The notes under the pieces are model-generated. The model was not told the origin of the DNA and made no database searches. It saw only the letters and a list, made by a program, of their open reading frames with translations. From the IMG/VR virus record IMGVR_UViG_2874956758_000005: a DNA stretch of 40,694 nucleotides. The stretch is one strand, 5' to 3'. The stretch is from a virus (Duplodnaviria; Heunggongvirae; Uroviricota; Caudoviricetes). Made by a program: the position numbers and the translations under genes. Of this stretch, positions 9,969 through 40,694 are shown one piece after another (positions within the stretch are counted from its first letter, which is position 1; each line of letters opens with the position of its first letter).

Positions 9969-12900
9969 CCCGACGCGATGACTGCATAATTGACACAACC
10001 CTGCTGTCGATCAGATCCACCAGTCCCCTGGCTGAGCGCGCATCTATCTCGCCATTGCTCCCTTGATTCTGAATGCTGATGTGATACACGGGAGAATAAA
10101 CAAATCCACCGCCACCATTCACATTTCCAATGGCCCTGACCCCAAGAGAGCCGTCCGCTGCCCGTGTCAGTGGCATGATTGCTTCAGGCCCGGCCTCGCC
10201 CATCAACCCGGCACCTTTCGCAAAAGCAAAATACGTCGGTGTATCCACAATAGTGTTACTGTAAGCACTCAGATTTGCCGATGTGTAAACACCACCTTTT
10301 GCGTTTGCCACTGCCCCCGAAATCCATCCGCCGACCGTACCAAGCCACCCTCCGGCACCGGAGAGTGATTTCAGTCCGTTAACAATGGCTGCATTCATCA
10401 GAATTTTTGAAACTTCCCGGAGAACTGAACTCCCCCAGTTCCTCCAGTCCACAACATTCCCGGCCAGTGCATCGGAAATATTTGATACCAGCCCGTCCAT
10501 CGTGGAAACGACAGCATCTGCCGCCTGTGAAGCATAATCGGTGGCACTGTCTGCCCAGTTGGTCAGTCCCTCCTGGAGTCCGGCATTCCAGTTATTACGT
10601 AAAGCATCGGCCTTTGCATAATAATTCTGCTGATCGCTGAGACGCTCTTCCAGATATTTTTTATTCAGTTCTTTCTCCTGTTTCCACAGGGCTTCTTCAA
10701 TTTCTCCGGCCTGATACTGTCTCAGCAGCTCGTTATTTTTCTGCTCAAACGCCTGCCGGATACTCCACATTTCCTGGAGTCGTTCACGCATCCGTGAGCC
10801 TTCACCATATCCCAACAACTGCGCTTCGTCAGATGCCCGGGCACTGGCATTACTGTCCGCCAGACTGCTCTCATACGCAGCAAGCTGCTCACGAATCTTT
10901 TTCTGGTCGATGAGTGCTGCATTCTGCAAAAGCGTTTTTTTCTGCGCTTCTGACAGGGTTGATAATTCGCCCTGACTGACCTGATATTTCATCTTAGCCA
11001 GTTCAGTATTCTGCCCTGCCAGTGCTATTTGTTCTTTTTGCTGTTTAATCAGCCGTTTATAAATATCTTCTGTTTTTTCCGCTTCGGTCTTTTTATGCGC
11101 TTTGGGTTTATTTGCCTGGTTATTTCGCCAGGCATCCAGTGAGTTATTGATATAATTCTGTCTGGCTGTCTGATATGCCTCTCCCACAAAGCCGAGATCA
11201 TCCGCAGCATAACCCAGGCGGGCACGCTCACGGGCTTCCCCCTTCAGGCGGGACAGAGCCAGTTCGCGCTCGCTGTTATTCAGTGCAGTCTGCTGTTTAT
11301 CATCCAGGGTTGCCTGTGGTAGCCGTAACGGTACATTCACCAGCCCCTGTCGCTGCTGAAGTAATTCATTACCGAGCCCGAGAAGACGATTAAACTCGGT
11401 ATGCTGCCCATTCATGATCAACAGGGACTGATACGCTTTGTTTTGTTCCGCGGCCTGTTGACGGATCAACGCCACCCGTCGCTCCTCCAGCCCGGCAAGC
11501 ACATCCTGAATGGATTGCGCTTTGCCCTGCATTTGTGTGAGACGGGACTGTTCAACTGCCAGTTGATTTGTTGCTTCTGCAAGCCCTTCTGTGACAGTTT
11601 TTACCGACGTCATGTGGTTAATCATAAAACCGTTATCGGTTGTCCAGCCCGAGTTTGCCAGCACATACTGATAGCCAGCAATTTTTTCCTGTAAGGATTT
11701 AATCTTACTTTTCTGCTCGTCAATTAACCTGTTTTGCTCATCAAGTGCCTGCCGCGTCTTTTCCTCATTATCTGACGCTTCAGGAAGCGACATTGCCGAC
11801 GTTTTCTGGCGAATTTCGTCGATTGTTGCGGCATACTGGCGTGCAGATTCTCTGGCCTGCTCCTGATTCTGATACATCGTGTACCAGGCCGTCGCCCCCA
11901 GCATGACGAGTCCCGGCACACCACCAACCAACCCCAGCGCACCACTTAACAGACGACTCCCCACTGACGTGACAGTATTCAGCGTTGTCTGTGCCGCTGT
12001 TCTGGCCGCAATATTACGGGTAAGTGACGCCTGGGCAGCTGTCAGCTTCGCTTCTGCTGCGGCCTGCCTTTCGGTACCGCGAGCAGCAACAACCGCCTGT
12101 TGCGCACGATAAACCGCCGCACGCGCCCTGGCGGTTGCTATCTGTGTCCCCCGAAGTTGCGCTTCAGCAAGAGCCACTTCGTTTCTGGCTGCAGTAATTA
12201 ATCCGGCAGTTGCAGATCCAGCAGACGACGCCATATTGCCAAAATATCGGGCTACCCCGACGGCAACCAGAGCACCGGCAGCGGTTGCCACGGTGTCAAT
12301 ATTGCCTGCAATACCATTCAGCACACCGGAGAGCGTCTTCGTCACTCCGCTTGCCTCGTTCGCACCACCAACCCAGGCCATAAAGGCGTTTTCAACTTTG
12401 GTTGCAGAGGATGAAACCGTATCAGGCATTGCCGCATATTCATCACGTAATGCCCCAAGCTGACTAATCAGTGCAGGAACAACCTTATCGGCGGTCAACT
12501 TTCCGTTATCCGCCATGGCCTTCAGATCCTTACGGGCAACTCCCATTCCCGCAGCCAGAGCACGAATAACACGATCGCCGTTCTCATTCACCGAGTTAAA
12601 CTCTTCACCGCGCAGCACTCCCTGCGCCAGAGCCTGACTGAACTGCGTGATCACCGAACTGGCTTCTGCTGTACTGGCACCGGATAATTTCAGGCCCGTG
12701 GAGATCGCCTCGGTGACTTTCAGTACCTCCTCAGAACTGTAACCATACTCCCGCATGGAAGCTGCAGAGCGGGCAAAAAGGCTGGCGTTATCAGAAAAAG
12801 CCGTCCCCGTTCTCTGGCTGATCGCCATTAATTCACGCTGTGATGACTGAAAATCATCACTGGACTGTGAGGCCTGCTTCAGACGGGCATTTACTGAATT

Positions 12901-26258: not shown

Positions 26259-26537
26259 TTACCTCCAGATGCGTTGCTGGAATGTGCGGGACGGACGCGG
26301 TGGGCGTTCAGAGTAAGGAAGCCTGACGGAGATTATCCAGTGACGATAATCGAGGCTGAGGGCTTTCTTAATCTCGTATCCGTGTCTGCGGTAGCACTGA
26401 ATTAGCCACTCGGCCTGTTCTTCAGTGCATGGGTCATGCTGGAACCAGTCAGATTTGAAAGTGCGGGAACGCCGCCCGTGCCTGCTGGCAAAGACGGCAG
26501 AATCATCAGAATTGTGTAATTTGGTATCGTGCGCCAT
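26259..26537 (-). CDS. hypothetical small protein upstream of DUF968
   Basis: 92-aa ORF from ATG 26537 (MAHDTKLHNSDDS...); co-oriented and abutting DUF968 gene. Confidence 0.4.
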   Translation of the reverse strand: MAHDTKLHNSDDSAVFASRHGRRSRTFKSDWFQHDPCTEEQAEWLIQCYRRHGYEIKKALSLDYRHWIISVRLPYSERPPRPSRTFQQRIWR

Positions 26538-26672
26538 CGGTTGTCTCTGCTGGCGCAGCAGGTGCCAGTTGTTCAGGCTGGCGTGCGGCAATATTGTCTC
26601 TGATTTCTGTTGTCGTCAACAGGCAGCGTGCTATCATCGAATAGTGTTCTATCCTACTCCTTGAGGTTTACC

Positions 26673-27287: not shown

Positions 27288-28370
27288 TCATTTTCTCTGG
27301 CTGATCTTTACCGGATAACCATCCCGAAGATCAATTAAGTGCTCCGGTTCAGAAGCAAACCATGCATAAGATCCCCACGCCAATTCTGGTATTGCCTTTT
27401 TAAAAGGCAGAGCACTTCTGTCCATAAATGCCGTAAGGAATGCAAGATTTTTCTCGCTGAACCCAGCGTCAATAGCCAAATGAGTGAGAGTAACTTTTCG
27501 TTCCCTGTTTATAGGCCCATCTGTCGCAACTACTTCAGTGAAAACTACAAGCATGTCCGAACCCGTTCGGTCCTCTCCCAAATCAATCAAAATAATATCT
27601 GGAAGTGCTTTTGAGGCATCAATATTCAGCCCCAATGCTTTTGCCAATACATCATCCTGAGCAACAACTTTATTCCCGGATTCAGACAACCAGAGCACAG
27701 TTGGATTCTTAAGAAAATTAGGAGCAAAAACTTCGATGACGGCCTTAGCTATTGTACTTGACGGGCCCGGAGCTAAAGTTCTCTTCTCTCCATTTGGGAA
27801 AGTGACGACTACGGCATCAGCAGCAATCACTGCCCCTGATTTCAATAAACGCAACCTGGCAAGAGCGGCTTTGTTCAAATGATTTTCTTGCCAGGAACTT
27901 ATTGCACTCAGCAGCGAATCTCCTTCAAGCCCGGCATCAAAGAGTGCTGCAAAAGAGCGATTCAAACTGTAACGAGGACGAGAGGATGTGGTGGGTATAC
28001 CTTTACGCTCAACAATTGCATTGCAAGGTATTAGGCCATTTTTTATAGTTTCATCACGTATTGGCTCACGCGTATTTTCCGCATACCATGCATCAGCAGG
28101 CCTTATCTTTTGTTTAGAGAAAGTCATCTTTACCCAGCTTTCTCTGGACGCATCATCAGTAAGAGCAGCCTGCGAATCTCCCATACTTACAACCTGGCTG
28201 GGCCTTATCCATCGCCCCAGCCCCTCAACCGCACCAGCATAAAACATGACAAAAATTGTTTTTGCAGCTATTTCCCGAATTAAATATCCACGATTCTCAG
28301 TCCCTTCAGGGAAAATTAATTGTAATCTTTCCCGGATAACATTCAATGGGGGAACAACAGGCAGATTCAT
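27288..28370 (-). CDS. type II restriction endonuclease, BsuBI/PstI family (putative)
   Basis: 360-aa ORF translationally coupled (ATGA overlap) to upstream N6-adenine methyltransferase; AT-richer than flanking phage genes. Confidence 0.6.
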   Translation of the reverse strand: MNLPVVPPLNVIRERLQLIFPEGTENRGYLIREIAAKTIFVMFYAGAVEGLGRWIRPSQVVSMGDSQAALTDDASRESWVKMTFSKQKIRPADAWYAENTREPIRDETIKNGLIPCNAIVERKGIPTTSSRPRYSLNRSFAALFDAGLEGDSLLSAISSWQENHLNKAALARLRLLKSGAVIAADAVVVTFPNGEKRTLAPGPSSTIAKAVIEVFAPNFLKNPTVLWLSESGNKVVAQDDVLAKALGLNIDASKALPDIILIDLGEDRTGSDMLVVFTEVVATDGPINRERKVTLTHLAIDAGFSEKNLAFLTAFMDRSALPFKKAIPELAWGSYAWFASEPEHLIDLRDGYPVKISQRK

Positions 28371-30199
28371 GCAATCATCACTCCATAGAAACCAGCGATA
28401 GTTCTCTCAATAATCCGTCTGTGGACGCCAGCATCAATTAACGATTGAATCTCCATCACCTGCTCCAGAGAAGGCAACGGGATTGAATTCAATTCATAGG
28501 CCGAAACAGCAACACTTCCGCTTATACACCTGAACGCCCGATCGACAACATGCGAATTAAGTAGCATATCAATAACATCAGGGCGAACCGCAGAGAACAA
28601 TCCGTTTGAATATACAATATTAATATGGTTTTCAACTACTACGCCACCAGTTTCATCTATAAATCCCTGAGGTAAAATTGCCGCTAAAATCCTTCTGTCC
28701 TGTTCCTTCGATGTTGTCCGCTGAACAAGCACACATTCAGATTTTGTCACAAGGAAACCCTGTTGTGGGGTTATATCGATATAGGGAACATGATTTTTTC
28801 TGTCTGCACTAAAACGAAAACCAGCTGAAGTTATTGATTCCGCCCAGACTAATGGGTAGCTATTTTTTCCTTTCGTCGTACGCAACTGCGACTTAAATCG
28901 ATTCCAGACTAACTGACCTGTAGAGACTGAGTATCCCAGATCAGCTAAACGCGTAGACATCTGTTTTAATACATTAAGAAAACAGGCATCATCTTTAACG
29001 CGTGGCAAAAGCCACGTTGCTCCACCTTTTTCTATATCAACATTACCTATTTTCTCAATTTTTGCTTTGTTCAACCCCTTAGGGACAAGTGAGGATACCT
29101 GGGCCCGAACTTTATGTTCTCCCGCCTTGAATGCTGTCAACATTGTTTCCTGGAGAACATCGTCAAAGACCCCATCCCTGTCAGCGACGAAATCAAGGGC
29201 ATACGGAGTAGTTTTTTCGGTCAAAAGGGTTCGCAGCGCGGTGAAATACTGCCCACCAAGAAAAGAAGTTGGCGTAAGAAATGCAATAACTCCTGTTTTC
29301 TCTTTAACCATGCGAACAGCTAAGTCGGTGAACAATCCATATAGATTTGCATGACCAAATAACGAACGAGAATATTTTTCTCTCGTTTTAATATCGAGAG
29401 TGACACGTCCGTAAGGCGGATTCCCTACCACAAGATCATAACCAGAAAATTTATCTTGCTGAAGCGCATCAGCAACAATAATTGTATCTTCAGGCAATCT
29501 ACGTTTTACCTTTACACATAGTGGCATTAGTACAGATTCGAGCAATACCAAACTCATCCAAGCCGCAAATGGATCGATTTCTATCCCCTTTAAACGACGA
29601 CTGATTCTCCTCAACATCCATTCAGGGGAAGACCCCTTGTCTTTTTTTAACATTCGAATGGCTACTGGTGCCAAAAATGCACCGCCACCACACGCAGGAT
29701 CAATAACCGATGCATGAGAAAAATCAACACCAGACTTTTCAGCCAGGTCCAAGAGACGCGCTACCAAAGGTGGGGGGGTATAGTAAGCCCCCAATTCCGA
29801 ACGGTAAGCGGATGGCAGCATTACCGTATAAATTGACCCAATCAGATATCCAGCGTCCTCCGCCGGAAATTGAGCAATAAGCTCACCTGTTCGTTCAGCG
29901 AGCTCGCGTGCATCACATGGAATGTCTTCTATGTAAACAGTGTGCGGTACTGCCCTCATTTTAATGCTGCTTTTTTGCTTTTTTGCAAGGGTATCCCAAT
30001 ATGCAGCTACGATGCTGAAGCAGTATGAGCGGGCATGCATCAACCTTGACTGCCCGGTTTTGTAATTGCCCGCATAACCTTTGGCCATGGCTTTACAAGT
30101 TTGATATCTTTCCAGATTAGAAAACTCATTATCTGTAAAAAAATCAAAATGTTGCACATTCATAATGTAAAATCCTAATGTATCAAACATGCGGGCCAT
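28367..30199 (-). CDS. N6-adenine DNA methyltransferase (Eco57I/PstI-type, gamma-class)
   Basis: 610-aa ORF with AdoMet motif I VIDPACGGGAFL followed by catalytic motif IV VVGNPPYGR; start could be ATG 30199 or 30163. Confidence 0.8.
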   Translation of the reverse strand: MARMFDTLGFYIMNVQHFDFFTDNEFSNLERYQTCKAMAKGYAGNYKTGQSRLMHARSYCFSIVAAYWDTLAKKQKSSIKMRAVPHTVYIEDIPCDARELAERTGELIAQFPAEDAGYLIGSIYTVMLPSAYRSELGAYYTPPPLVARLLDLAEKSGVDFSHASVIDPACGGGAFLAPVAIRMLKKDKGSSPEWMLRRISRRLKGIEIDPFAAWMSLVLLESVLMPLCVKVKRRLPEDTIIVADALQQDKFSGYDLVVGNPPYGRVTLDIKTREKYSRSLFGHANLYGLFTDLAVRMVKEKTGVIAFLTPTSFLGGQYFTALRTLLTEKTTPYALDFVADRDGVFDDVLQETMLTAFKAGEHKVRAQVSSLVPKGLNKAKIEKIGNVDIEKGGATWLLPRVKDDACFLNVLKQMSTRLADLGYSVSTGQLVWNRFKSQLRTTKGKNSYPLVWAESITSAGFRFSADRKNHVPYIDITPQQGFLVTKSECVLVQRTTSKEQDRRILAAILPQGFIDETGGVVVENHINIVYSNGLFSAVRPDVIDMLLNSHVVDRAFRCISGSVAVSAYELNSIPLPSLEQVMEIQSLIDAGVHRRIIERTIAGFYGVMIA

Positions 30200-33159: not shown

Positions 33160-33585
33160 TCAATGCACAGCCACAATATTTCCTGCAGGGCCACCACGAT
33201 TCATCTGGTTGAAACCAGCGATCGCCACTGCGACAAAATCATCAGCGTCTCTCACCAGTCGTTCCCGCGTCTCCACTAGTTCCCGAAAATAGGCTGAGCT
33301 ATGGCTGCGCATTCGGGCCACCAGCAGAGGTGGCATTGCTTTTTCGATAGCTGGTAACAACGCCTGAATTTTTTTAAGCGCATCAGGGGTGTCTTTCTCC
33401 ACCCAGCGGAAAATTTTCTGAGTATTGCGAGCCAGGGCTTCCGGATGGCTGTCGTCATACAGTTCCGGGAACGTCATTCCCAGCTCGAAATACGCTTTGG
33501 TAATTTTCGCAGCCGGTACTTTTTCGCCGTCCGGATGCGCCCAGGCATTCATCGCCATGCGGATGTGTTCATGCTTGATTTTCAT
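33160..33585 (-). CDS. YdaT-like protein (cII position)
   Basis: 141-aa ORF starting MKIKHEHI...; ATG overlaps cro stop (ATGA); position between cro and replication genes. Confidence 0.5.
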   Translation of the reverse strand: MKIKHEHIRMAMNAWAHPDGEKVPAAKITKAYFELGMTFPELYDDSHPEALARNTQKIFRWVEKDTPDALKKIQALLPAIEKAMPPLLVARMRSHSSAYFRELVETRERLVRDADDFVAVAIAGFNQMNRGGPAGNIVAVH

Positions 33586-33836
33586 GAATCAACTCCCATC
33601 AGCTTTTTCGTAGTAGTTTTATTCCTGCCAATAGTTAAAATTGCATCGGCAGAAAATAATCCGTTTGATGCAAGAGCGATTTTTTCAGCGTAATTTGTTT
33701 CGCCGGTATATTCTGTGCGAGGCAATTTTCCGTTATCCATCCATTTATAGATTGCTCTTTGGCTGACACCACAAACGTCGGCCACAACAGCAACGCGAAC
33801 AGTTTTGATTACATCTTCAAGTGTTTTCTGGTTCAT
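33582..33836 (-). CDS. Cro-like HTH regulator
   Basis: 84-aa ORF from ATG 33836 (GAGGGTGAT RBS); HTH ...VCGVSQRAIYKW...; divergent from repressor gene. Confidence 0.7.
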   Translation of the reverse strand: MNQKTLEDVIKTVRVAVVADVCGVSQRAIYKWMDNGKLPRTEYTGETNYAEKIALASNGLFSADAILTIGRNKTTTKKLMGVDS

Positions 33837-33915
33837 ATCACCCTCACAATGTGAACTTTGAGTACATGCTATAACAGAACTGACAGTACATTCAAGAGCG
33901 AATATCATTGAACTT
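33837..33915. promoter_or_regulatory. divergent cro/cI promoter-operator region (OR-like)
   Basis: 79-bp gap; two AGTACAT 7-mers (33861, 33885); minus-strand TTGAAT -16/17- TGTTATAGC extended -10 pointing at cro. Confidence 0.5.
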
Positions 33916-34335
33916 ATGGTTCATGAAGATAAAGCGCGTAAAGAGTTCGCCAGTAGGCTTGCGCTAGCCTGTGAAAACGCTGGTTATGAACAACATGGAA
34001 GGCAGGCAGAAATTGCCCGTCGAATGAAATTAACACCAAAAGCGGTTAGCAAATGGTTTAATGGCGAAACAATTCCTCGCCGGGAGAAATTAAGGGAATT
34101 AGCAACACTAATAGGAACAACACCAACCTATCTTTTGGGAGAGGATACAGAAGAAAGTGGACAGGTACGTTTCTATCAGGAGTTAAATCCAAGACAAAAA
34201 ATCATCATTGACCTTCTGGACGAGCTCCCTGACAGTGAGACAGATGAACTTTTAAAAACTCTTGAAGAGAAAAAACAGAAGTACAATGCAATTTACGAAG
34301 AGTTAGCACGAAAGAAAAAACAAAAAGCCTCTTAA
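33916..34335 (+). CDS. cI-like repressor, HTH_XRE only (no LexA-type peptidase domain)
   Basis: 139-aa ORF; HTH ...EIARRMKLTPKAVSKWFNGETIP...; C-terminus is a Glu/Lys-rich helix, no Ser/Lys protease motifs; no SD (leaderless-like). Confidence 0.65.
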   Translation: MVHEDKARKEFASRLALACENAGYEQHGRQAEIARRMKLTPKAVSKWFNGETIPRREKLRELATLIGTTPTYLLGEDTEESGQVRFYQELNPRQKIIIDLLDELPDSETDELLKTLEEKKQKYNAIYEELARKKKQKAS

Positions 34336-34403
34336 ACCAGCATAAATCCGGTAGCGCCTTCCTCCGGGTTTGTGCTTCACTTTATCCCATCTCATTTTTT
34401 TAC

Positions 34404-34460
34404 ACACAAAATGTACTATAAGTACTTTACAACAATGAACGCAAAGTACATTATATACCT
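34404..34460 (+). promoter_or_regulatory. putative leftward promoter/operator (OL/PL-like)
   Basis: ATGTACT (34411), AGTACT (34421), AGTACAT (34445) repeats with TTTACA -17- CATTAT promoter-like spacing. Confidence 0.35.
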
Positions 34461-34632
34461 GCCACCCACCCCGCCCCACAGAATGCAGGGCAATACTTCG
34501 AGTTACCAGGCAGTGGTCAGGGGTTAAGTAGCCAGCCCGAGGCGTAAGAACATGACGGCAGGGTTCAACTTTAATAACTATGCAGCAGGTTTTTGTTCCG
34601 CTACCCCGGCGTTAAGGGGAAATGAGGTCAGC

Positions 34633-34788
34633 ATGGATACTATCGATCTTGGCAACAACGAATCTCTGGTGTACGGCGTGTTTCCCAACCAGGACGGCAC
34701 ATTCACCGCGATGACGTATACCAAAAGCAAAACGTTTAAAACCGAAAATGGTGCCCGTCGCTGGCTGGAAAGAAACTCAGGTGAGTGA
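34633..34788 (+). CDS. small protein (51 aa), YdaF-like
   Basis: ATG 34633 with GAGG 5 nt upstream; MDTIDLGNNESLVYGVFPNQDGTF...; an upstream in-frame ATG at 34552 is possible. Confidence 0.45.
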   Translation: MDTIDLGNNESLVYGVFPNQDGTFTAMTYTKSKTFKTENGARRWLERNSGE

Positions 34789-34789
34789 T

Positions 34790-34918
34790 ATGGATTTCGA
34801 CACAATCATGGAAAAGGCTTACGAAGAATACTTCGAAGGCCTTGCCGAAGGCGAAGAAGCTCTCAGCTTCAGTGAGTTTAAACAGGCGCTTTCCAGCTCG
34901 GCAAAATCTAACGGCTGA
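34790..34918 (+). CDS. small acidic protein (42 aa), YdaG-like
   Basis: Unannotated ATG ORF MDFDTIMEKAYEEYFEGLAEGEEALSFSEFKQALSSSAKSNG; GGTGAG RBS; starts 2 nt after previous stop. Confidence 0.45.
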   Translation: MDFDTIMEKAYEEYFEGLAEGEEALSFSEFKQALSSSAKSNG

Positions 34919-34947
34919 TAAGCGAAGCAGCACCGCGAGGAATCAGT

Positions 34948-35166
34948 ATGCAGAAACGAGAACCCGTCATCATCGCGCCAGACTATACCGATGATGAACT
35001 TTATGAGTGGATGCACCAGAAAATTAAGGCTGCGCAGGACCTGAAATGGGCCAATGAAGCCAGGGCTAAGCAGGCTGAAAATCTGTCCGCTCTGGAGCAG
35101 GATATCACCAATCTGGAAAAAGCAGCGGCATTAAGCATTGCCAGAATGATTACATACCCACGTTAA
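34948..35166 (+). CDS. hypothetical protein (72 aa)
   Basis: ATG with AGGAAT upstream; helical charged sequence. Confidence 0.45.
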   Translation: MQKREPVIIAPDYTDDELYEWMHQKIKAAQDLKWANEARAKQAENLSALEQDITNLEKAAALSIARMITYPR

Positions 35167-35188
35167 TGGTTAACCAACGAGGCTAATA

Positions 35189-35596
35189 ATGGAATTTAAA
35201 GATTTACCAAAAGAAATCCAGACAATTGCTGCAACGACTCTCGGTGATAGTCTGGTGAAAATTGACCCGGCATACACCAAAAAAGAAACCATCGATAATA
35301 TGGTTCGTAATGTGCGCAATGCTTTTTCTGGGCTATATGGTTCTGATAATCAAAAGCAGGAAAGCGATGTTAATGAACGGGTAATTTCTGTTTGCGTGAA
35401 TGGCCATGTTCTTTCATCAATCAAAACAGAAACAGCGACAGTCTTCGATTGCCTTTGCATTGTACAGAGCCTTGTTGATGCCCTGTTTCGTTCAGTGAAT
35501 TTAGAAAATGATGCAAATCTGCGAGGGCGCACAATAGCACATCCATATGCACATACTTTAGGCTCTGTGGATATCAAAGATCCCACAAATCTTTAA
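35189..35596 (+). CDS. hypothetical protein (135 aa)
   Basis: ATG with GAGG upstream; no recognisable motif. Confidence 0.5.
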   Translation: MEFKDLPKEIQTIAATTLGDSLVKIDPAYTKKETIDNMVRNVRNAFSGLYGSDNQKQESDVNERVISVCVNGHVLSSIKTETATVFDCLCIVQSLVDALFRSVNLENDANLRGRTIAHPYAHTLGSVDIKDPTNL

Positions 35597-35807
35597 TGAA
35601 ATAGTTAACGCGAATTGTACTTGCTCTTTCAGTTGCTTTCAGAATACGCGTTGAAACTGCTGGCGGTAATTTGGTATTCCATTTATTAAAATCATGCCCG
35701 GGAAAGTACTCTTCGAAAATACTTTTAACTGCAGACTCGCCTATTGAAATGCTGCTTACCATGCGATTTTGATAAAGGCATTTAGCAATAAGAGTTGATT
35801 TTAACAT
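35574..35807 (-). CDS. hypothetical protein (77 aa), opposite strand to the surrounding operon
   Basis: ATG 35807 preceded by strong RBS AGGAGGG; 3' end overlaps the 135-aa gene by 23 nt convergently. Confidence 0.45.
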   Translation of the reverse strand: MLKSTLIAKCLYQNRMVSSISIGESAVKSIFEEYFPGHDFNKWNTKLPPAVSTRILKATERASTIRVNYFIKDLWDL

Positions 35808-36155
35808 TCACCCTCCTGAGGGTTGGTAATTAAGGAGTTCTCCACGGGTGAGGTGGAGTGCGTGCGCCGGACACGGGTGAGCATCCGGCACTGACAGTTT
35901 ACTGAAAGGATATGTCCCTGAAAAGTCAGGGCATAACGCGAAAGCGCACGGCGAGGCTGTTAGTTCATAAATGGTCTGTCGTTAAATTTTCGTCGACCGT
36001 GCGCTTCCGGTTGTGGCAATCCGCGAAATGGCGCGGCGGTAAGTATGGCGGGGTTATTCCTTCCCCGTTGAGGACACCGGGTTGTCAGGTTGACCATACG
36101 CTTAAGTGACAACCCCGCTGCAACGCCCTCTGTTATCAATTTTCTGGTGACGTTT

Positions 36156-36200
36156 GGCGGTATCAGTTTTACTCCGTGACTGCTCTGCCGCCCTTTTTAA
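36156..36200 (+). terminator. candidate intrinsic terminator
   Basis: GGCGG...CCGCC imperfect hairpin followed by CTTTTTAAA. Confidence 0.4.
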
Positions 36201-36367
36201 AGTGAATTTTGTGATGTGGTGAATGCGGCTGAGCGCACGCGGAACAGTTAAAACCGAAAACAGTGTTATGGGTGGATTCTCTGTATCCGGCGTTAATTGT
36301 TAACTGGTTAACGTCACCTGGAAGCACCAGGCACCGCATCACAAAACTCATTGTTGAGGGCGCGATA

Positions 36368-36556
36368 ATGAAAACGTTATTACCAAACGTTAATACGTCT
36401 GAAGGTTGTTTTGAAATTGGTGTCACTATCAGTAATCCTGTATTCACTGAAGAGGCCATTAACAAAAGAAAACACGAACGGGAGTTATTAAATAAAGTAT
36501 GCATTGTTTCAATGCTGGCCCGTTTACGTCTGATGCCAAAAGGATGTGCACAATGA
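36368..36556 (+). CDS. hypothetical small protein (62 aa)
   Basis: ATG 36368 with GAGGG RBS; stop overlaps next start (ATGA). Confidence 0.4.
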   Translation: MKTLLPNVNTSEGCFEIGVTISNPVFTEEAINKRKHERELLNKVCIVSMLARLRLMPKGCAQ

Positions 36557-36741
36557 ATCCAGTATTTGCACTTATTCTGACGGTTTTTCTTGTTTCCGGA
36601 GAGCCAGTTGATATTGCAGTCAGTGTTCACAGAACAATGCAGGAATGTATGGCCGCAGCAACCGAACAGAAAATTCCAGGCAACTGTTATCCGGTCGATA
36701 AAGTTATTCACCAGGATAACGAAATCCCGGCAGGATTTTAA
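36553..36741 (+). CDS. small protein with signal-peptide-like N-terminus (62 aa)
   Basis: ATG 36553 with AAGGA 8 nt upstream; MNPVFALILTVFLVSGEPVD..., two Cys. Confidence 0.45.
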   Translation: MNPVFALILTVFLVSGEPVDIAVSVHRTMQECMAAATEQKIPGNCYPVDKVIHQDNEIPAGF

Positions 36742-36834: not shown

Positions 36835-39276
36835 ATGAGCACTGATAAAGAAGAATTTGCACTATATTGCGAAGCAAAAAATGACAAAGTAAGAAAACGC
36901 CTGGGAATTAAAGGTGGTTTTTACTGGACTACAGCAAAAAAATTATCTGTTGCAATCTCCCGCTGCATTACCGCAATGGATGACAACGATTATGATGAAG
37001 ACGACTTTAAAAAACCCGTCCGCGTCAATTTGCCCGTTGTTGACGACCTTCCGCCAGAAGGCGTGTTTGATACTGAATTCTGCAACCGCTATGAAAAAGG
37101 CGGGAAAGATGGCATCACAATGACATTTATCGGCCCTTCCCCCTCTGTTCAGGACAAACCAGCCAGCACTGACAATACCAACATCAACGGCGAAGACATG
37201 ACTGAGATTGAGGAGAGCATGCTTCTGCCTGTCTCCGGTCAGGAACTGCCCATTCGTTGGCTTGCTCAACACGGCAGCGAAAAACCAGTAACGCACGTTT
37301 CACGCGACGAACTCCAGGCATTACACATTGCACGGGCTGAAGAACTACCGGCTGTTACTGCCCTGGCTATTTCGCATAAAACCAGTCTGCTCGACTCGCT
37401 GGAGATTCGCGACCTCCACAAACTGGTTCGTGACACTGACAAAGTTTTCCCTAATCCTGGTAATTCAGACCTGGGACTAATAACTGCTTTTTTCGAAGCA
37501 TACCTGGACGCTGACTACACTGATCGGGGTCTGCTGACAAAAGAGTGGATGAAAGGAAATCGTGTTTCACGCATCACCCGCACGGCTTCCGGTGCTAATG
37601 CTGGCGGTGGGAACAAAACCGATCGCAATCCGAATTTAGTACACACCCTCGACACACTGGATGTGGAGATTGCAGCAGCCACACTTCCGATGGATTTTAA
37701 TATTTATGAAATTCCGGGCAGCGTTTATCGTCGCGCAAAAGAAGTAGTTCTGAACAAAGAAAGTCCGTTCAAAGAATGGTCCGCAGCACTTCGTGCAACC
37801 CCGGGTATTCTGGACTATTCCCGCGCCGCTATTTTTGCACTTATCCGAAGCGCACACCCTGAATTCTATCACTACCCGGGACGCCTTCAGGGGTATATCA
37901 ACGCCTATTTGACGGAAACTGATCACGAGAACCCCAGCAAGGAAACTCTCACAGCTGCCCGGCATACGCCGGAAAAAGATATCCTGGAAGAAATTAACCG
38001 CGAGGTGGTTACTGAGCGTGAAACAGAAGAAGAAAAACCACAACCATCTGACGCAATGGCAGGTGAACAGGCAACAACTGAAACAATGGAACCGGATACA
38101 ACTGAACATGGCCAGAACGCGCAGTCGCTGGATGCTCAGTCGCAGGTGAGTTCCGCTAACCAAGTAAAAGTCACCGCTGACGAAGTAAACAAAATTATGC
38201 AGGCAGCCAATATCAGCCAGCCTGACGCCGATAAGTTACTTGCTGTATCGCGTGGTGAATTTGTTGAGGGGATTAGCGACCCTAATGATCCGAAATGGGT
38301 TAAGGGGATCCAGACCCGCGATTCTGTGAACCAGAACCAGCAAGAAACGGAACAGAACGACCAGAAAGCGGAACAAAACAGCCCAAATACACAACAAAAC
38401 GAGCCAGAAACGAAACAACCTGAACCAGTAGTGCAACAGGAACCGGAAAAGATCTGCACCGCCTGCGGTCAGAGCGGTGGCGGCAACTGCCCTGATTGTG
38501 GTGCGGTGATGGGTGACGCAACATACCAGGAAATATTCGATGGAGAGAATCAGCCTGAAGTTCAGGAAAATGATCCGGAGGAAATGGAAGGCACTGCGCA
38601 TCAGCACAAGGAGAACACTGGCGGCAATCAGCATCATGCCAGCGATAGTGAAACTGGCGAGGCGTCAGATCCCTTAATTAAGGCGAACGGTCATCATAAT
38701 CTCACATCCACCAGCAGAGCGGGGATTCATCTGATGATCGACCTTGAAACCATGGGAAAAAATCCCGATGCCCCGATTATCTCAATAGGTGCAATATTTT
38801 TCGATCCGCAAACCGGAGATATGGGACCGGAATTTAGTAAGACTATCGATCTGGAAACTGCTGGCGGAGTCATTGATCGGGACACCATTAAATGGTGGCT
38901 TAAACAATCACGCGAAGCGCAATCTGCCATTATGACCGATGAAATCCCGTTAGATGATGCACTGTTACAATTGCGGGAATTTATCGACGAAAACTCCGGT
39001 GAATTTTTTGTTCAGGTCTGGGGAAATGGAGCCAACTTCGACAACACGATTTTGCGCCGTTCATACGAACGGCAGGGGATCCCCTGCCCGTGGCGTTACT
39101 ACAACGATCGCGATGTACGCACAATCGTTGAGCTGGGGAAAGCCATAGACTTCGATGCCAGAACGGCTATTCCATTCGAAGGTGAGCGCCATAATGCACT
39201 TGATGACGCCCGTTACCAGGCAAAATACGTTTCAGTTATCTGGCAAAAACTGATCCCGAGTCAGGCTGATTTTTAA
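36835..39276 (+). CDS. exodeoxyribonuclease VIII (RecE)-like protein with C-terminal DEDDh 3'-5' exonuclease domain
   Basis: 813-aa ORF; N-terminal half RecE-like (…NGEDMTEIEESMLLPVSGQELPIRWLAQHGSEKPVTHVSRDELQALHIARAEELPAV…); central CxxC-x7-CxxC; C-terminus has MIDLET..., GNGANFDNT..., HNALDDARYQ. Confidence 0.75.
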   Translation: MSTDKEEFALYCEAKNDKVRKRLGIKGGFYWTTAKKLSVAISRCITAMDDNDYDEDDFKKPVRVNLPVVDDLPPEGVFDTEFCNRYEKGGKDGITMTFIGPSPSVQDKPASTDNTNINGEDMTEIEESMLLPVSGQELPIRWLAQHGSEKPVTHVSRDELQALHIARAEELPAVTALAISHKTSLLDSLEIRDLHKLVRDTDKVFPNPGNSDLGLITAFFEAYLDADYTDRGLLTKEWMKGNRVSRITRTASGANAGGGNKTDRNPNLVHTLDTLDVEIAAATLPMDFNIYEIPGSVYRRAKEVVLNKESPFKEWSAALRATPGILDYSRAAIFALIRSAHPEFYHYPGRLQGYINAYLTETDHENPSKETLTAARHTPEKDILEEINREVVTERETEEEKPQPSDAMAGEQATTETMEPDTTEHGQNAQSLDAQSQVSSANQVKVTADEVNKIMQAANISQPDADKLLAVSRGEFVEGISDPNDPKWVKGIQTRDSVNQNQQETEQNDQKAEQNSPNTQQNEPETKQPEPVVQQEPEKICTACGQSGGGNCPDCGAVMGDATYQEIFDGENQPEVQENDPEEMEGTAHQHKENTGGNQHHASDSETGEASDPLIKANGHHNLTSTSRAGIHLMIDLETMGKNPDAPIISIGAIFFDPQTGDMGPEFSKTIDLETAGGVIDRDTIKWWLKQSREAQSAIMTDEIPLDDALLQLREFIDENSGEFFVQVWGNGANFDNTILRRSYERQGIPCPWRYYNDRDVRTIVELGKAIDFDARTAIPFEGERHNALDDARYQAKYVSVIWQKLIPSQADF

Positions 39277-39337: not shown

Positions 39338-39607
39338 ATGAGCGAACAGTACCTGATAACGCTCGACGAGTGGAAACCAAAACGGTTCAGTCTCCCAATA
39401 ACAAACACTACCCTGGTGAAATACGGAAAACTAGGATACATCGTTCCAAGGCCACAAAAAATTCGTGGGCGTTGGCTGATAGATCGCCGAGCAGTATTTG
39501 TTGGGCCTGGTGAAACGGGAATTGCGCCGGAAATTCATACTGGCGATGATGATGCACTGAAGGAGATTTTAACTCATGTCACCGAGGCCACGAAAAAACA
39601 GCACTGA
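39338..39607 (+). CDS. xis: putative excisionase
   Basis: 89-aa ORF from ATG 39338 (GGAG RBS) immediately upstream of and overlapping the integrase gene. Confidence 0.5.
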   Translation: MSEQYLITLDEWKPKRFSLPITNTTLVKYGKLGYIVPRPQKIRGRWLIDRRAVFVGPGETGIAPEIHTGDDDALKEILTHVTEATKKQH

Positions 39608-40694
39608 CGTAGCCGGTCTTTACGAAAAGTTTGATCGCAGAACTGGCAGAGTTTACTACCAGTATAAAAATCCTGTGACTGGAAAATTTCACGGACTCGG
39701 AACAGACAAAGGTAAGGCAGAAAAAATCGCTTCCACAGCCAATCAGCGAATAGCTGCAGCAGAAGCTGAATATTTCATGCGCAAAATTGATGAAAGTCCG
39801 TCAGCAACAAAACGTCGGGGTATCAGATTAAAGGCATGGGTTGATCGATATCTGAAAATACAGGACACGCGACTGAAAAATGGAGATATTGCAGCTACAA
39901 CTCACAAAGAAAAAACTCGAATGGCTGCATACCTGGTTTCCCGTCTGGGAAACCACCCATTGAAAGAACTGGAAGTAAGAGACTTTGCATTAATACTGGA
40001 TGAGTGGCTGGATAAAGACATGGTCAGCACAGCGAGAGTAAATCGTGGATTATGGGTTGATATTTATAAAGAAGCACAGCATGCAGGGGAAGTTCCTCCT
40101 GGATGGAATCCTCCGGAGGCTACCCGTAAACCGATCCCTAAAGTAACCAGAGCCAGGCTCACCATGGAAGACTGGCAAAAAATTTACAATGCAACGCCTG
40201 AAAAACACTTTATCCGTAACGCAATGCTTCTTGCGATTGTTACTGGTCAGCGCCGTGATGACATTTGCCACATGCGTTTTTCAGATGTGTGGAACGAACA
40301 CTTGCATATCACCCAGGGAAAAACCGGAATGCGTCTGGCGTTACCGCTTACACTACGCTGTGATGCCATTGGGATAACGTTAAAAGAAGTTATTGATGGG
40401 TGCCGAGACAGAATATTAAGTCCATATCTAATCCATAGTCGGCACCAGAAACAACCGAAGCCGATGAGTAAAGACAACCTGAGCGACTACTTTGCCAAAG
40501 CACGGGATCTGGCTGGGATAATTCCACCAGCAGGAAAAACTCCGCCAACATTTCATGAACAACGCTCTCTATCAGAACGGCTGTACCGTGCACAGGGTAT
40601 CGATACAAAAACATTACTAGGACATAAAGTCCAGGCAACCACCGATCGCTATAACGATACTCGAGGTCAGGAATGGGTTAAGTTGGTTATTTAA
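39576..40694 (+). CDS. int: lambda-family tyrosine integrase
   Basis: 372-aa ORF; catalytic region ...LAIVTGQRRDDICHMRFSDV...HEQRSLSERLYRAQ...LLGHKVQATTDRYNDTRGQEWVKL with R, H-x-x-R and Tyr; stop at window end. Confidence 0.9.
   Translation: MSPRPRKNSTDVAGLYEKFDRRTGRVYYQYKNPVTGKFHGLGTDKGKAEKIASTANQRIAAAEAEYFMRKIDESPSATKRRGIRLKAWVDRYLKIQDTRLKNGDIAATTHKEKTRMAAYLVSRLGNHPLKELEVRDFALILDEWLDKDMVSTARVNRGLWVDIYKEAQHAGEVPPGWNPPEATRKPIPKVTRARLTMEDWQKIYNATPEKHFIRNAMLLAIVTGQRRDDICHMRFSDVWNEHLHITQGKTGMRLALPLTLRCDAIGITLKEVIDGCRDRILSPYLIHSRHQKQPKPMSKDNLSDYFAKARDLAGIIPPAGKTPPTFHEQRSLSERLYRAQGIDTKTLLGHKVQATTDRYNDTRGQEWVKLVI

Follow-up and report, generated by a model that had tools for sequence, protein, structure and literature searches.

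The 40,694-nucleotide (nt) stretch of viral DNA analyzed here (IMG/VR record IMGVR_UViG_2874956758_000005; the whole stretch is called the window below) carries, at the position of cI, a gene for a protein of 139 amino acids (aa) that is very probably a CI-type repressor responsible for maintaining lysogeny. This repressor would belong to the same family as DicA of Qin and GtgR of the Gifsy phages, would not be cleavable via RecA, and would be blind in cis to the SOS response. The gene and its parts are as follows.

33916-34335, plus strand: immunity repressor gene, 139 aa, ATG start; helix-turn-helix (HTH) domain, linker, and helical hairpin
33916-34137, plus strand: HTH domain, residues 1-74, followed by the linker, residues 75-91
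34189-34329, plus strand: helical hairpin, residues 92-138

The repressor of phage lambda senses DNA damage through a self-cleaving domain. The initial annotation proposed that the repressor in the window has no such S24 autocleavage domain, and Pfam analysis, an AlphaFold2 model, a motif alignment, and a window-wide search for S24 domains all agree with that proposal. Pfam matches were to HTH families only (HTH_3, 1.8e-09, residues 29-73; and HTH_31), and Peptidase_S24 (PF00717) gave no match in the repressor at E<=0.1. Using S24 C-terminal domains from two Klebsiella/Raoultella-type repressors, HK022 CI, and the cI of the Escherichia coli FDAARGOS_943 prophage, plus the lambda CI domain, as tblastn and phmmer queries against every frame of the window, we found none (best E 0.22). 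The AlphaFold2 model (35 homologues, aligned without DicA and GtgR; mean predicted local distance difference test score [pLDDT] 89.5) is all-helical with no beta structure, and is composed of five HTH helices (residues 2-74), a low-confidence linker (~75-91), and two further helices (92-103 and 106-138) that form a hairpin with a pLDDT of about 95. In the alignment, the SAGPG Ala-Gly site, the GDSM serine motif, and the VKRL lysine motif of S24-containing relatives have no counterpart in the repressor, whose sole Ala-Gly pair, residues 22-23, lies within the HTH domain. A sequence search of the PDB returned matches to the HTH domain only (P22 C2 and 434 repressor), and no solved structure of the C-terminal module. 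The structure prediction and profile search suggested as checks in the initial annotation were thus both carried out, and neither produced an S24 domain. Its description of the protein as an HTH followed by a Glu/Lys-rich helix also holds as an architecture (residues 88-139 include 8 Glu, 9 Lys, 4 Asp, and 2 Arg), except that the helix is better described as a conserved, well-folded hairpin domain than as a low-complexity tail.

The C-terminal module also connects the protein to a family. BLASTP aligned DicA with the repressor at 29% identity over 112 aa that include this module (E 5e-15), and PHROG 5736 matched residues 27-139 (9.5e-20). The consensus LTxRxxxLLxLFxxLPxSExDxLxxxLEEKKxxYDxLxEEL is common to an alignment of 31 sequences, consisting of the query, DicA, GtgR of Gifsy-2, and 28 short full-length homologues from two protein searches; an exhaustive library search gave 983 hits, many of which are full-length proteins of 120-160 aa. 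Judged by sequence, the repressor is a member of the DicA (Qin)/GtgR (Gifsy-2) family of short, non-cleavable repressors, and the kinship with antirepressor-controlled Gifsy-type repressors that had been proposed for it is borne out by the DicA match and the shared module. Gifsy repressors are not cleaved upon induction; they form dimers and are stripped from DNA by small antirepressors, which are encoded in a LexA-controlled dinI-antirepressor-irsA operon (Lemire 2011, PMC3121763). The same study named DicA and RacR as members of the class and noted homologues in most E. coli genomes. Inactivation by an antirepressor has been shown for GfoR, GfhR, and GtgR (PMC3121763) and, genetically, for DicA and Rem: Rem of Qin derepresses the DicA-controlled promoter dicBp 165-fold, and about 1% of cells switch spontaneously in a manner that depends on DicC but not on Rem (Ragunathan 2023, PMC10448788).

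Two full-length Salmonella homologues (65% and 62% identity) were considered as candidates for GfoR and GfhR, a suspicion prompted by an upstream in-frame ATG in the 62% homologue that resembles that of GfhR*. Their neighbors are P22/lambda-like, with no dinI and no LexA box, and the identification could not be confirmed. In these Salmonella prophages, a HigB-toxin/HTH pair comes immediately after the repressor gene, in an order reminiscent of paaR2-paaA2-parE2, and the nin-like region encodes a 266-aa KilA-N protein.

The possibility that translation starts farther upstream, giving a longer protein, is excluded for this sequence. An in-frame stop codon is located upstream of the gene at 33859-33861, and no ATG, GTG, or TTG occurs between it and 33916. 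Relatives, including the long ones that carry S24, share the start (MVHE(D/E)KARKEF or MVQEEKAR), and in E. coli APEC O18 the Prokaryotic Genome Annotation Pipeline (PGAP) calls an identical 139-aa product (WP_000233320.1). The gene also lacks a Shine-Dalgarno (SD) sequence, as annotated: the best anti-SD duplex within the 20 nt upstream is -1.9 kcal/mol, which is at the level of the window background (mean -2.0), whereas most other gene starts tested in the window reach about -6 to -10.7 kcal/mol. A promoter similar to PRM precedes the gene:

33880-33908, plus strand: PRM-like promoter, CTGACA-17 nt-TATCAT; 10/12 consensus matches; the region has just one other consensus hit

Because only 7 nt separate the -10 element TATCAT from the ATG, transcription is predicted to start at 33915/33916, producing an mRNA that is leaderless or has a 1-nt leader. 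The -35 and -10 elements and their spacing are kept in three relatives (HK022, Klebsiella, and Citrobacter), and the positional analogue PaaR2 of CP-933P was found to be leaderless by 5' rapid amplification of cDNA ends and N-terminal sequencing (PMC8630535). It is therefore plausible, on sequence grounds, that the repressor mRNA is a leaderless or nearly leaderless PRM-type transcript. For that part of the initial annotation, the missing SD sequence and the conserved promoter geometry stand, and the transcript itself is still a prediction. The literature yielded nothing useful on leaderless transcription of HK022 cI or on WP_000233320.

The DNA-binding half of the repressor and the sites that surround its gene point to a different ancestry than the C-terminal half. 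The N-terminal 75-100 residues are 62-72% identical to those of Klebsiella/Raoultella Peptidase_S24 repressors of 235-240 aa, and the N-terminal domain is about 40-47% identical to that of HK022 CI; the segment that includes the recognition helix, PKA(V/I)SKWFNGE, hardly varies between the repressor and the S24-bearing CIs. In the Klebsiella/Raoultella and HK022 proteins, SAGPG, GDSM, and VKRL then follow, in place of the hairpin of the window protein. Three sites in the window match TGWAC-N5-GTWCA exactly, all of them beside the repressor gene, and these plus two one-mismatch sites all lie within 600 bp (at <=1 mismatch, 18 sites were observed in the whole window vs 3.35 expected). Three of the five lie between cI and cro (24 and 33 bp apart), and two lie over the leftward promoter (24 bp apart). 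The putative operators, which have no strand, and promoters are as follows.

33852-33866: OR1-equivalent, TGAACTTTGAGTACA; exact match, aligned to the annotated HK022 oR, around the predicted PR start
33876-33890: OR2-equivalent, AGAACTGACAGTACA; 24 bp from OR1, overlapping the PR spacer and the PRM -35
33909-33923: OR3-equivalent, TGAACTTATGGTTCA; 33 bp from OR2, overlapping the repressor ATG and the predicted PRM start
34412-34426: OL2-equivalent, TGTACTATAAGTACT; geometry as for the annotated HK022 oL sites
34436-34450: OL1-equivalent, TGAACGCAAAGTACA; 24 bp from OL2
33868-33895, minus strand: PR-like promoter, -35 TTGAAT (33895-33890), 16 nt, -10 TATAGC (33873-33868); drives the cro-like gene
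34426-34454, plus strand: PL-like promoter, TTTACA-17-CATTAT, overlapped by both OL sites; same position as HK022 pL relative to oL

The PR-like promoter was missed by a consensus scan; it was read from the sequence and placed against the annotated HK022 pR. The PL-like promoter would drive the ydfA/B/C-dicF-dicB-ydfD operon. Across the cI-cro intergenic region, the window, HK022, Klebsiella phage 2 LV-2017, and Citrobacter phage Omnitron show 79% mean column identity with the three operators in register, and OR3 is nearly invariant between the window and the three relatives, with a single substitution that falls in the 5-nt spacer. The operators are spaced, and the promoters placed, as in the HK022 and HK75 annotations. 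By its operators, Cro, and CI DNA-binding domain, the immunity region is thus of the HK022 type. Since its CI has no S24 domain for cooperativity and cleavage, we call it a mosaic and not an orthologue of HK022 CI. The sequences indicate that an HK022-type switch is combined with a DicA/Gifsy-type hairpin in place of the domain for RecA sensing and cooperativity, and with an establishment regulator like those of Rac and CP-933P.

The identical protein is found in a phage that has been studied. The CI repressor of Tritos (prophage 3 of adherent-invasive E. coli LF82) is 100% identical to the window repressor and has the same cro and ydaT neighbors. According to the available text of the Tritos report, expression of the repressor gene in the lysogen exceeds the prophage background 24-fold, electron microscopy revealed virions, a plaque was obtained, spontaneous release reached 2.8e6 genomes/mL, trimethoprim cut the Tritos yield 3.4-fold, and the LF82 phages reported as induced by ciprofloxacin are Gally and Cyrano only (PMC9928086). 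A strong LexA box is missing from Tritos as well, where the best site scores 14.6 bits and is intragenic. These data fit a repressor that allows stochastic induction and is not SOS-responsive on its own.

An antirepressor encoded elsewhere in the prophage could provide the missing SOS input, and the window is suited to a search for one. Apart from an 878-bp cassette and insertion sequence (IS) elements, its 40,694 bases correspond to one prophage of E. coli FDAARGOS_943 at 99.4-100% identity, located between potB and potC and extending from the tail-fibre assembly gene to the integrase. By sequence, the window is a complete, intact-looking lambdoid prophage, so absence from the window amounts to absence from the prophage. 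Homologues of Rem, Gifsy-2 GftA, DinI, and IrsA were not detected by tblastn or phmmer at E < 0.05 among 749 six-frame open reading frames (ORFs) of >=30 aa, and a hidden Markov model (HMM) of the Rem family (44 homologues) matched none of these ORFs. The PGAP annotation of the near-identical backbone includes no antirepressor, KilA, or Bro protein. The earlier remark that no antirepressor is evident in the window is therefore borne out for the known families. A LexA position weight matrix, constructed from 20 E. coli SOS boxes and controlled by its detection of the published Gifsy-2 dinI box at 24.0 bits, gave a best window score of 10.6 bits. Every training site scores higher (at least 12.8), and so does the mean maximum of shuffled windows (11.7). 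CTGT-N8-ACAG occurs at <=1 mismatch at 15 window sites vs 12.4 expected. A complete Gifsy-type system comprises a LexA box and a dinI-antirepressor-irsA (or rem-like) operon; neither was found, and we therefore do not file the prophage as such a system. With no known antirepressor and no LexA box, the prophage is most likely blind in cis to SOS.

Two candidates were examined and rejected in these searches. An exact CTGT-N8-ACAG sequence lies at 26607 in an intergenic region, forms a 6+6 palindrome over the parD -35, and is outside the top 15 matrix scores; its position and its low score lead us to read it as a ParD operator. The other is a 92-aa gene beside the DUF968 gene (26259-26537), which sits roughly at the place that rem occupies in Qin; it belongs to PHROG 1212, not to PHROG 340 as Rem does, and has no similarity to Rem.

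26607-26622: palindrome CTGTTGTCGTCAACAG, overlapping the -35 of the parD promoter

Two side observations arose from the same searches. The E. coli APEC O18 prophage, which contains the same cassette, has a strong LexA-box-like sequence, AACTGGATATTTTTACAGTA (12318-12337; 23.8 bits). It covers part of the 5' end, as annotated, of a gene for a DNA methyltransferase that lies downstream of Q, in a region absent from the window. In addition, the Rem-family HMM matches the C-terminal ~75 residues of the Q antiterminator of Tritos (39480-40289 of Tritos; E 1.1e-07; rem lies at 1652-1903 of its own source sequence), and one database homologue joins the Rem Pfam family (PF27490) to an antitermination domain. 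Rem may have been derived from a C-terminal fragment of a Q protein.

The FDAARGOS_943 prophage shows that the immunity cassette is exchanged as a unit. At 40580-41659 of the sequence compared, an unrelated 212-aa cI with HTH and S24 domains and a different cro replace window positions 33590-34467. The exchanged unit is exactly cro, OR, cI, and OL, and it is the only substantial difference between the two prophages besides IS elements. PGAP annotates this 212-aa cI merely as a 112-aa 'LexA family protein'. Based on sequence comparison, the shared backbone has no feature tied to the non-cleavable repressor. Of 5426 complete E. coli genomes, 1046 contain the 1.1-kb immunity region with at least 80% of its length covered.

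Together, these data suggest the following mechanism. Repressor dimers, joined by the helical hairpin, would bind the operators and pair cooperatively at the sites spaced 24 bp apart, shutting off PR (cro, ydaT, and replication) and PL (ydfABC-dicF-dicB), and a third site over the start of the repressor gene would limit repressor synthesis. The gene would be transcribed from the PRM-like promoter as a leaderless or nearly leaderless mRNA, and YdaT, bound to an exact operator at the cro/ydaT junction, would provide CII-like establishment. A protein with no Ala-Gly site and no Ser/Lys dyad would not be inactivated directly by DNA damage. In the characterized relatives, a small antirepressor (GfoA/GftA or Rem) binds the repressor and removes it from DNA (PMC3121763, PMC10448788). 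Derepression in this prophage would occur by stochastic switching between repressor and Cro, through an antirepressor that another prophage in the cell provides in trans, or by both routes. A bolder version, which we put forward only tentatively and consider possible rather than probable, is that the prophage has no DNA-damage input of its own, so that induction needs the antirepressors of other prophages or an unrecognized non-SOS antirepressor among its small genes, and that it perhaps confers an SOS-proof HK022-type immunity. Such immunity might act against HK022-type phages, given the HK022-type recognition helix and operators seen here.

Several points weigh against this interpretation. 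Antirepressors are small, evolve quickly, and belong to several unrelated families, such that a null result for the Rem and GftA types does not prove absence, and the window contains conserved small genes of unassigned function (members of PHROGs 1212 [92 aa], 1621 [118 aa], 1363 [135 aa], and 10348 [77 aa], and ydfA/B/C). The LexA matrix rests on 20 SOS boxes, though it was validated on Gifsy-2. Identity to the studied family members is low (DicA, 29% local and 23% aligned; GtgR, about 20%). For Tritos, the available text of PMC9928086 states no ciprofloxacin value outright, and beyond the immunity region the two prophages are not alike. Binding of the repressor to DNA, its oligomerization and cooperative behavior, its leaderless translation, and its resistance to RecA-stimulated cleavage are all predictions.

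The small genes form the basis of the strongest alternative, which we nevertheless judge improbable: that the prophage encodes its own antirepressor of an unrecognized family, in the PL operon or the nin-like region, responding to a signal other than LexA cleavage. The window, Tritos, and the APEC O18 prophage, which have this repressor in common, also share the 92-aa PHROG 1212 gene beside DUF968, and there is a precedent in FsoA of Fels-1, a left-operon antirepressor controlled by the phage repressor and not by LexA (PMC3121763). None of the several small conserved ORFs without assigned function resembles Rem, GftA, DinI, or IrsA, however, and the near-identical backbone of FDAARGOS_943 works with an S24-type cI, indicating that nothing ties its small genes specifically to a cassette of the non-cleavable kind. 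Genes of the PL operon would moreover be repressed themselves, so they could reinforce induction but not start it. Somewhat less likely still is direct inactivation, with no antirepressor, by a host protease such as Lon or ClpXP or through instability under stress (heat or urea); the 17-residue linker that AlphaFold2 predicts to be disordered would suit such a route, but there is no sequence evidence for it, and it is compatible with, rather than exclusive of, a repressor that is blind to SOS in cis.

Two other explanations question the identity of the protein, and both have very little probability. One is that it is not an immunity repressor but the regulator of an accessory module, toxin-antitoxin-like, as was once proposed for ydaS/ydaT and PaaR2; weak Pfam matches to YdaS_toxin and P22_Cro and the HigB/HTH pair that follows the Salmonella homologues are in its favor. 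Here, however, HK022-type OR and OL sets lie on either side of the gene, covering promoters that resemble PR and PL; there is no toxin gene after it; and in Tritos it is an expressed CI repressor. The other, and in our estimation the most remote of those considered, is that the 139-aa protein is what a deletion or frameshift has left of an S24-type cI, in which case the prophage would be defective and its induction would follow no special logic. Its nearest N-terminal relatives are indeed S24 repressors of 235-240 aa, and the database contains many truncated or frameshifted copies of these genes. But the C-terminal 50 residues form a conserved, confidently predicted fold that is shared with DicA, GtgR, and dozens of proteins of 120-160 aa, there is no S24 remnant downstream or in another frame, the identical protein serves a plaque-forming phage, and the immunity region occurs in the 1046 genomes counted above. 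We therefore favor the reading of the protein as a non-cleavable CI-type repressor of the DicA/GtgR family.

If this reading is correct, the cassette found in about one in five complete E. coli genomes represents the antirepressor-controlled class and not the lambda class, induction assays with mitomycin or fluoroquinolones may under-report such prophages, and activation of a given prophage may depend on which other prophages share the cell. Complete lack of a damage input would build in a dependency on prophage crosstalk. The mosaic structure shows that phage repressors exchange their DNA-binding/operator half and their induction/oligomerization half independently, as modules. Descriptions of the class date back to 2011, and current understanding is therefore unchanged; what is new is that the repressor is an HK022/DicA mosaic and that an intact-looking prophage apparently lacks SOS input in cis.

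The remainder of the early region is consistent in layout with a lambdoid prophage. The minus-strand early-right operon encodes the Cro-like protein, a YdaT-like protein, a replisome organizer, and a DnaC-like protein, and the plus strand carries the repressor and the left operon (ydfA/B/C-like genes, DicF, dicB, and ydfD), followed by a RecE-like exonuclease, xis, and int.

33582-33836, minus strand: Cro-like gene, 84 aa, SD GAGGG; 60% identity to HK022 Cro
33160-33585, minus strand: YdaT-family gene, 141 aa, functional analogue of CII (PMC9986795); Pfam YdaT_toxin 1.2e-09
33575-33592, no strand: YdaT operator, TTGATT-N6-AATCAA, exact, at the cro/ydaT junction; the only window match at <=2 mismatches
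34552-36741, plus strand: repressed left operon (DUF1391/ydfA-like, ydfB-like, ydfC, 135-aa unknown, DicF, dicB, ydfD-like)
35189-35596, plus strand: PHROG 1363 member, 135 aa
35574-35807, minus strand: PHROG 10348 member, 77 aa; convergent with 35189-35596, 23-nt overlap
36142-36193, plus strand: DicF small RNA, full-length; Rfam RF00039, 76.7 bits
36368-36556, plus strand: dicB
36553-36741, plus strand: ydfD-like
36835-39276, plus strand: exonuclease, 813 aa
26674-27247: parD/parE toxin-antitoxin pair, upstream of the DUF968 gene
27288-30199: BsuBI/PstI-type restriction endonuclease and HsdM-like methyltransferase, upstream of the DUF968 gene

The repressor and Cro-like genes are divergent, with starts 79 bp apart. 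The 108-aa Cro start at 33908, used in the Tritos annotation, is not preceded by an SD (-1.0 kcal/mol) and would place coding sequence over the operators, and the 84-aa start at 33836 is preferred. In CP-933P, the footprinted O_M site of YdaT lies at the same position, the cro/ydaT junction (PMC9986795); by analogy, the exact YdaT operator at 33575-33592 is likely to be a PRE-type establishment control site beside an HK022-type switch. DicF and dicB are located within the PL operon of a seemingly intact prophage and are also carried by Tritos; the Qin-type cell-division-inhibitor operon thus occurs outside cryptic prophages too. Compared with Qin, two conserved genes, the PHROG 1363 and PHROG 10348 members, are inserted between ydfC and dicF. 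The N-terminal two-thirds of the 813-aa exonuclease is, we presume, RecE-like. The variety of PGAP names for this protein (3'-5' exoribonuclease domain protein, 3'-5' exonuclease, or simply exonuclease) hints at an N-terminal part from RecE joined to another kind of nuclease domain.

The repressor shares features with several known systems, and differs from each of them. SinR/SinI of Bacillus and the repressor/AimX pair of arbitrium phages follow the same plan, in which an XRE HTH is joined to a helical oligomerization domain that is targeted by a small antagonist; full-length Foldseek matches (including 1b0n, 9iaq, and 9sf2) are weak (E about 0.02, root-mean-square deviation 9-12 A), and we regard the resemblance as an analogy of design, not as demonstrated C-terminal homology. 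PaaR2 of CP-933P and RacR of Rac are short CI analogues that have no peptidase motif and have YdaS/YdaT-type partners. PaaR2 is unresponsive to mitomycin C (PMC8630535); it heads a toxin-antitoxin operon, which the repressor described here does not. Tritos has the same repressor but other structural, lysis, and nin-region genes, as well as an ImmA/IrrE-like protein and hokD, both of which the window lacks.

The HK022-type phages (HK022, HK75, Klebsiella phage 2 LV-2017, and Citrobacter phage Omnitron) are like this prophage in operator sequence, number, and spacing, in promoter positions, and in having the repressor ATG within OR3. Their repressors, however, are larger (208-240 aa), and the half occupied here by the hairpin contains an Ala-Gly site and an S24 domain with its Ser/Lys pair, and the CII analogue of this prophage is of the YdaT type. 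The Salmonella Gifsy repressors GtgR, GfoR, and GfhR are likewise short (~140 aa), non-cleavable CI analogues, and GtgR aligns along its whole length with the C-terminal motif in common, although at only about 20% identity; the Gifsy phages carry their LexA-controlled dinI-antirepressor-irsA operon downstream of the replication genes, whereas the window has neither the operon nor a LexA box. DicA differs in its DNA-binding domain and operators, which are of the HK022 type here, and its partner DicC is unrelated to the Cro analogue of this prophage. Upstream of the DUF968 gene, Qin carries rem-hokD-relBE, whereas this prophage, which has no rem, carries parDE and a restriction-modification system at that place. 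DicA nevertheless resembles the repressor in size (135 vs 139 aa) and in combining an XRE HTH with an LPxSE helical module and no Ala-Gly site or S24 domain, and like the repressor it is encoded at the cI position, divergent from a Cro analogue and upstream of a ydfABC-dicF-dicB-ydfD operon.

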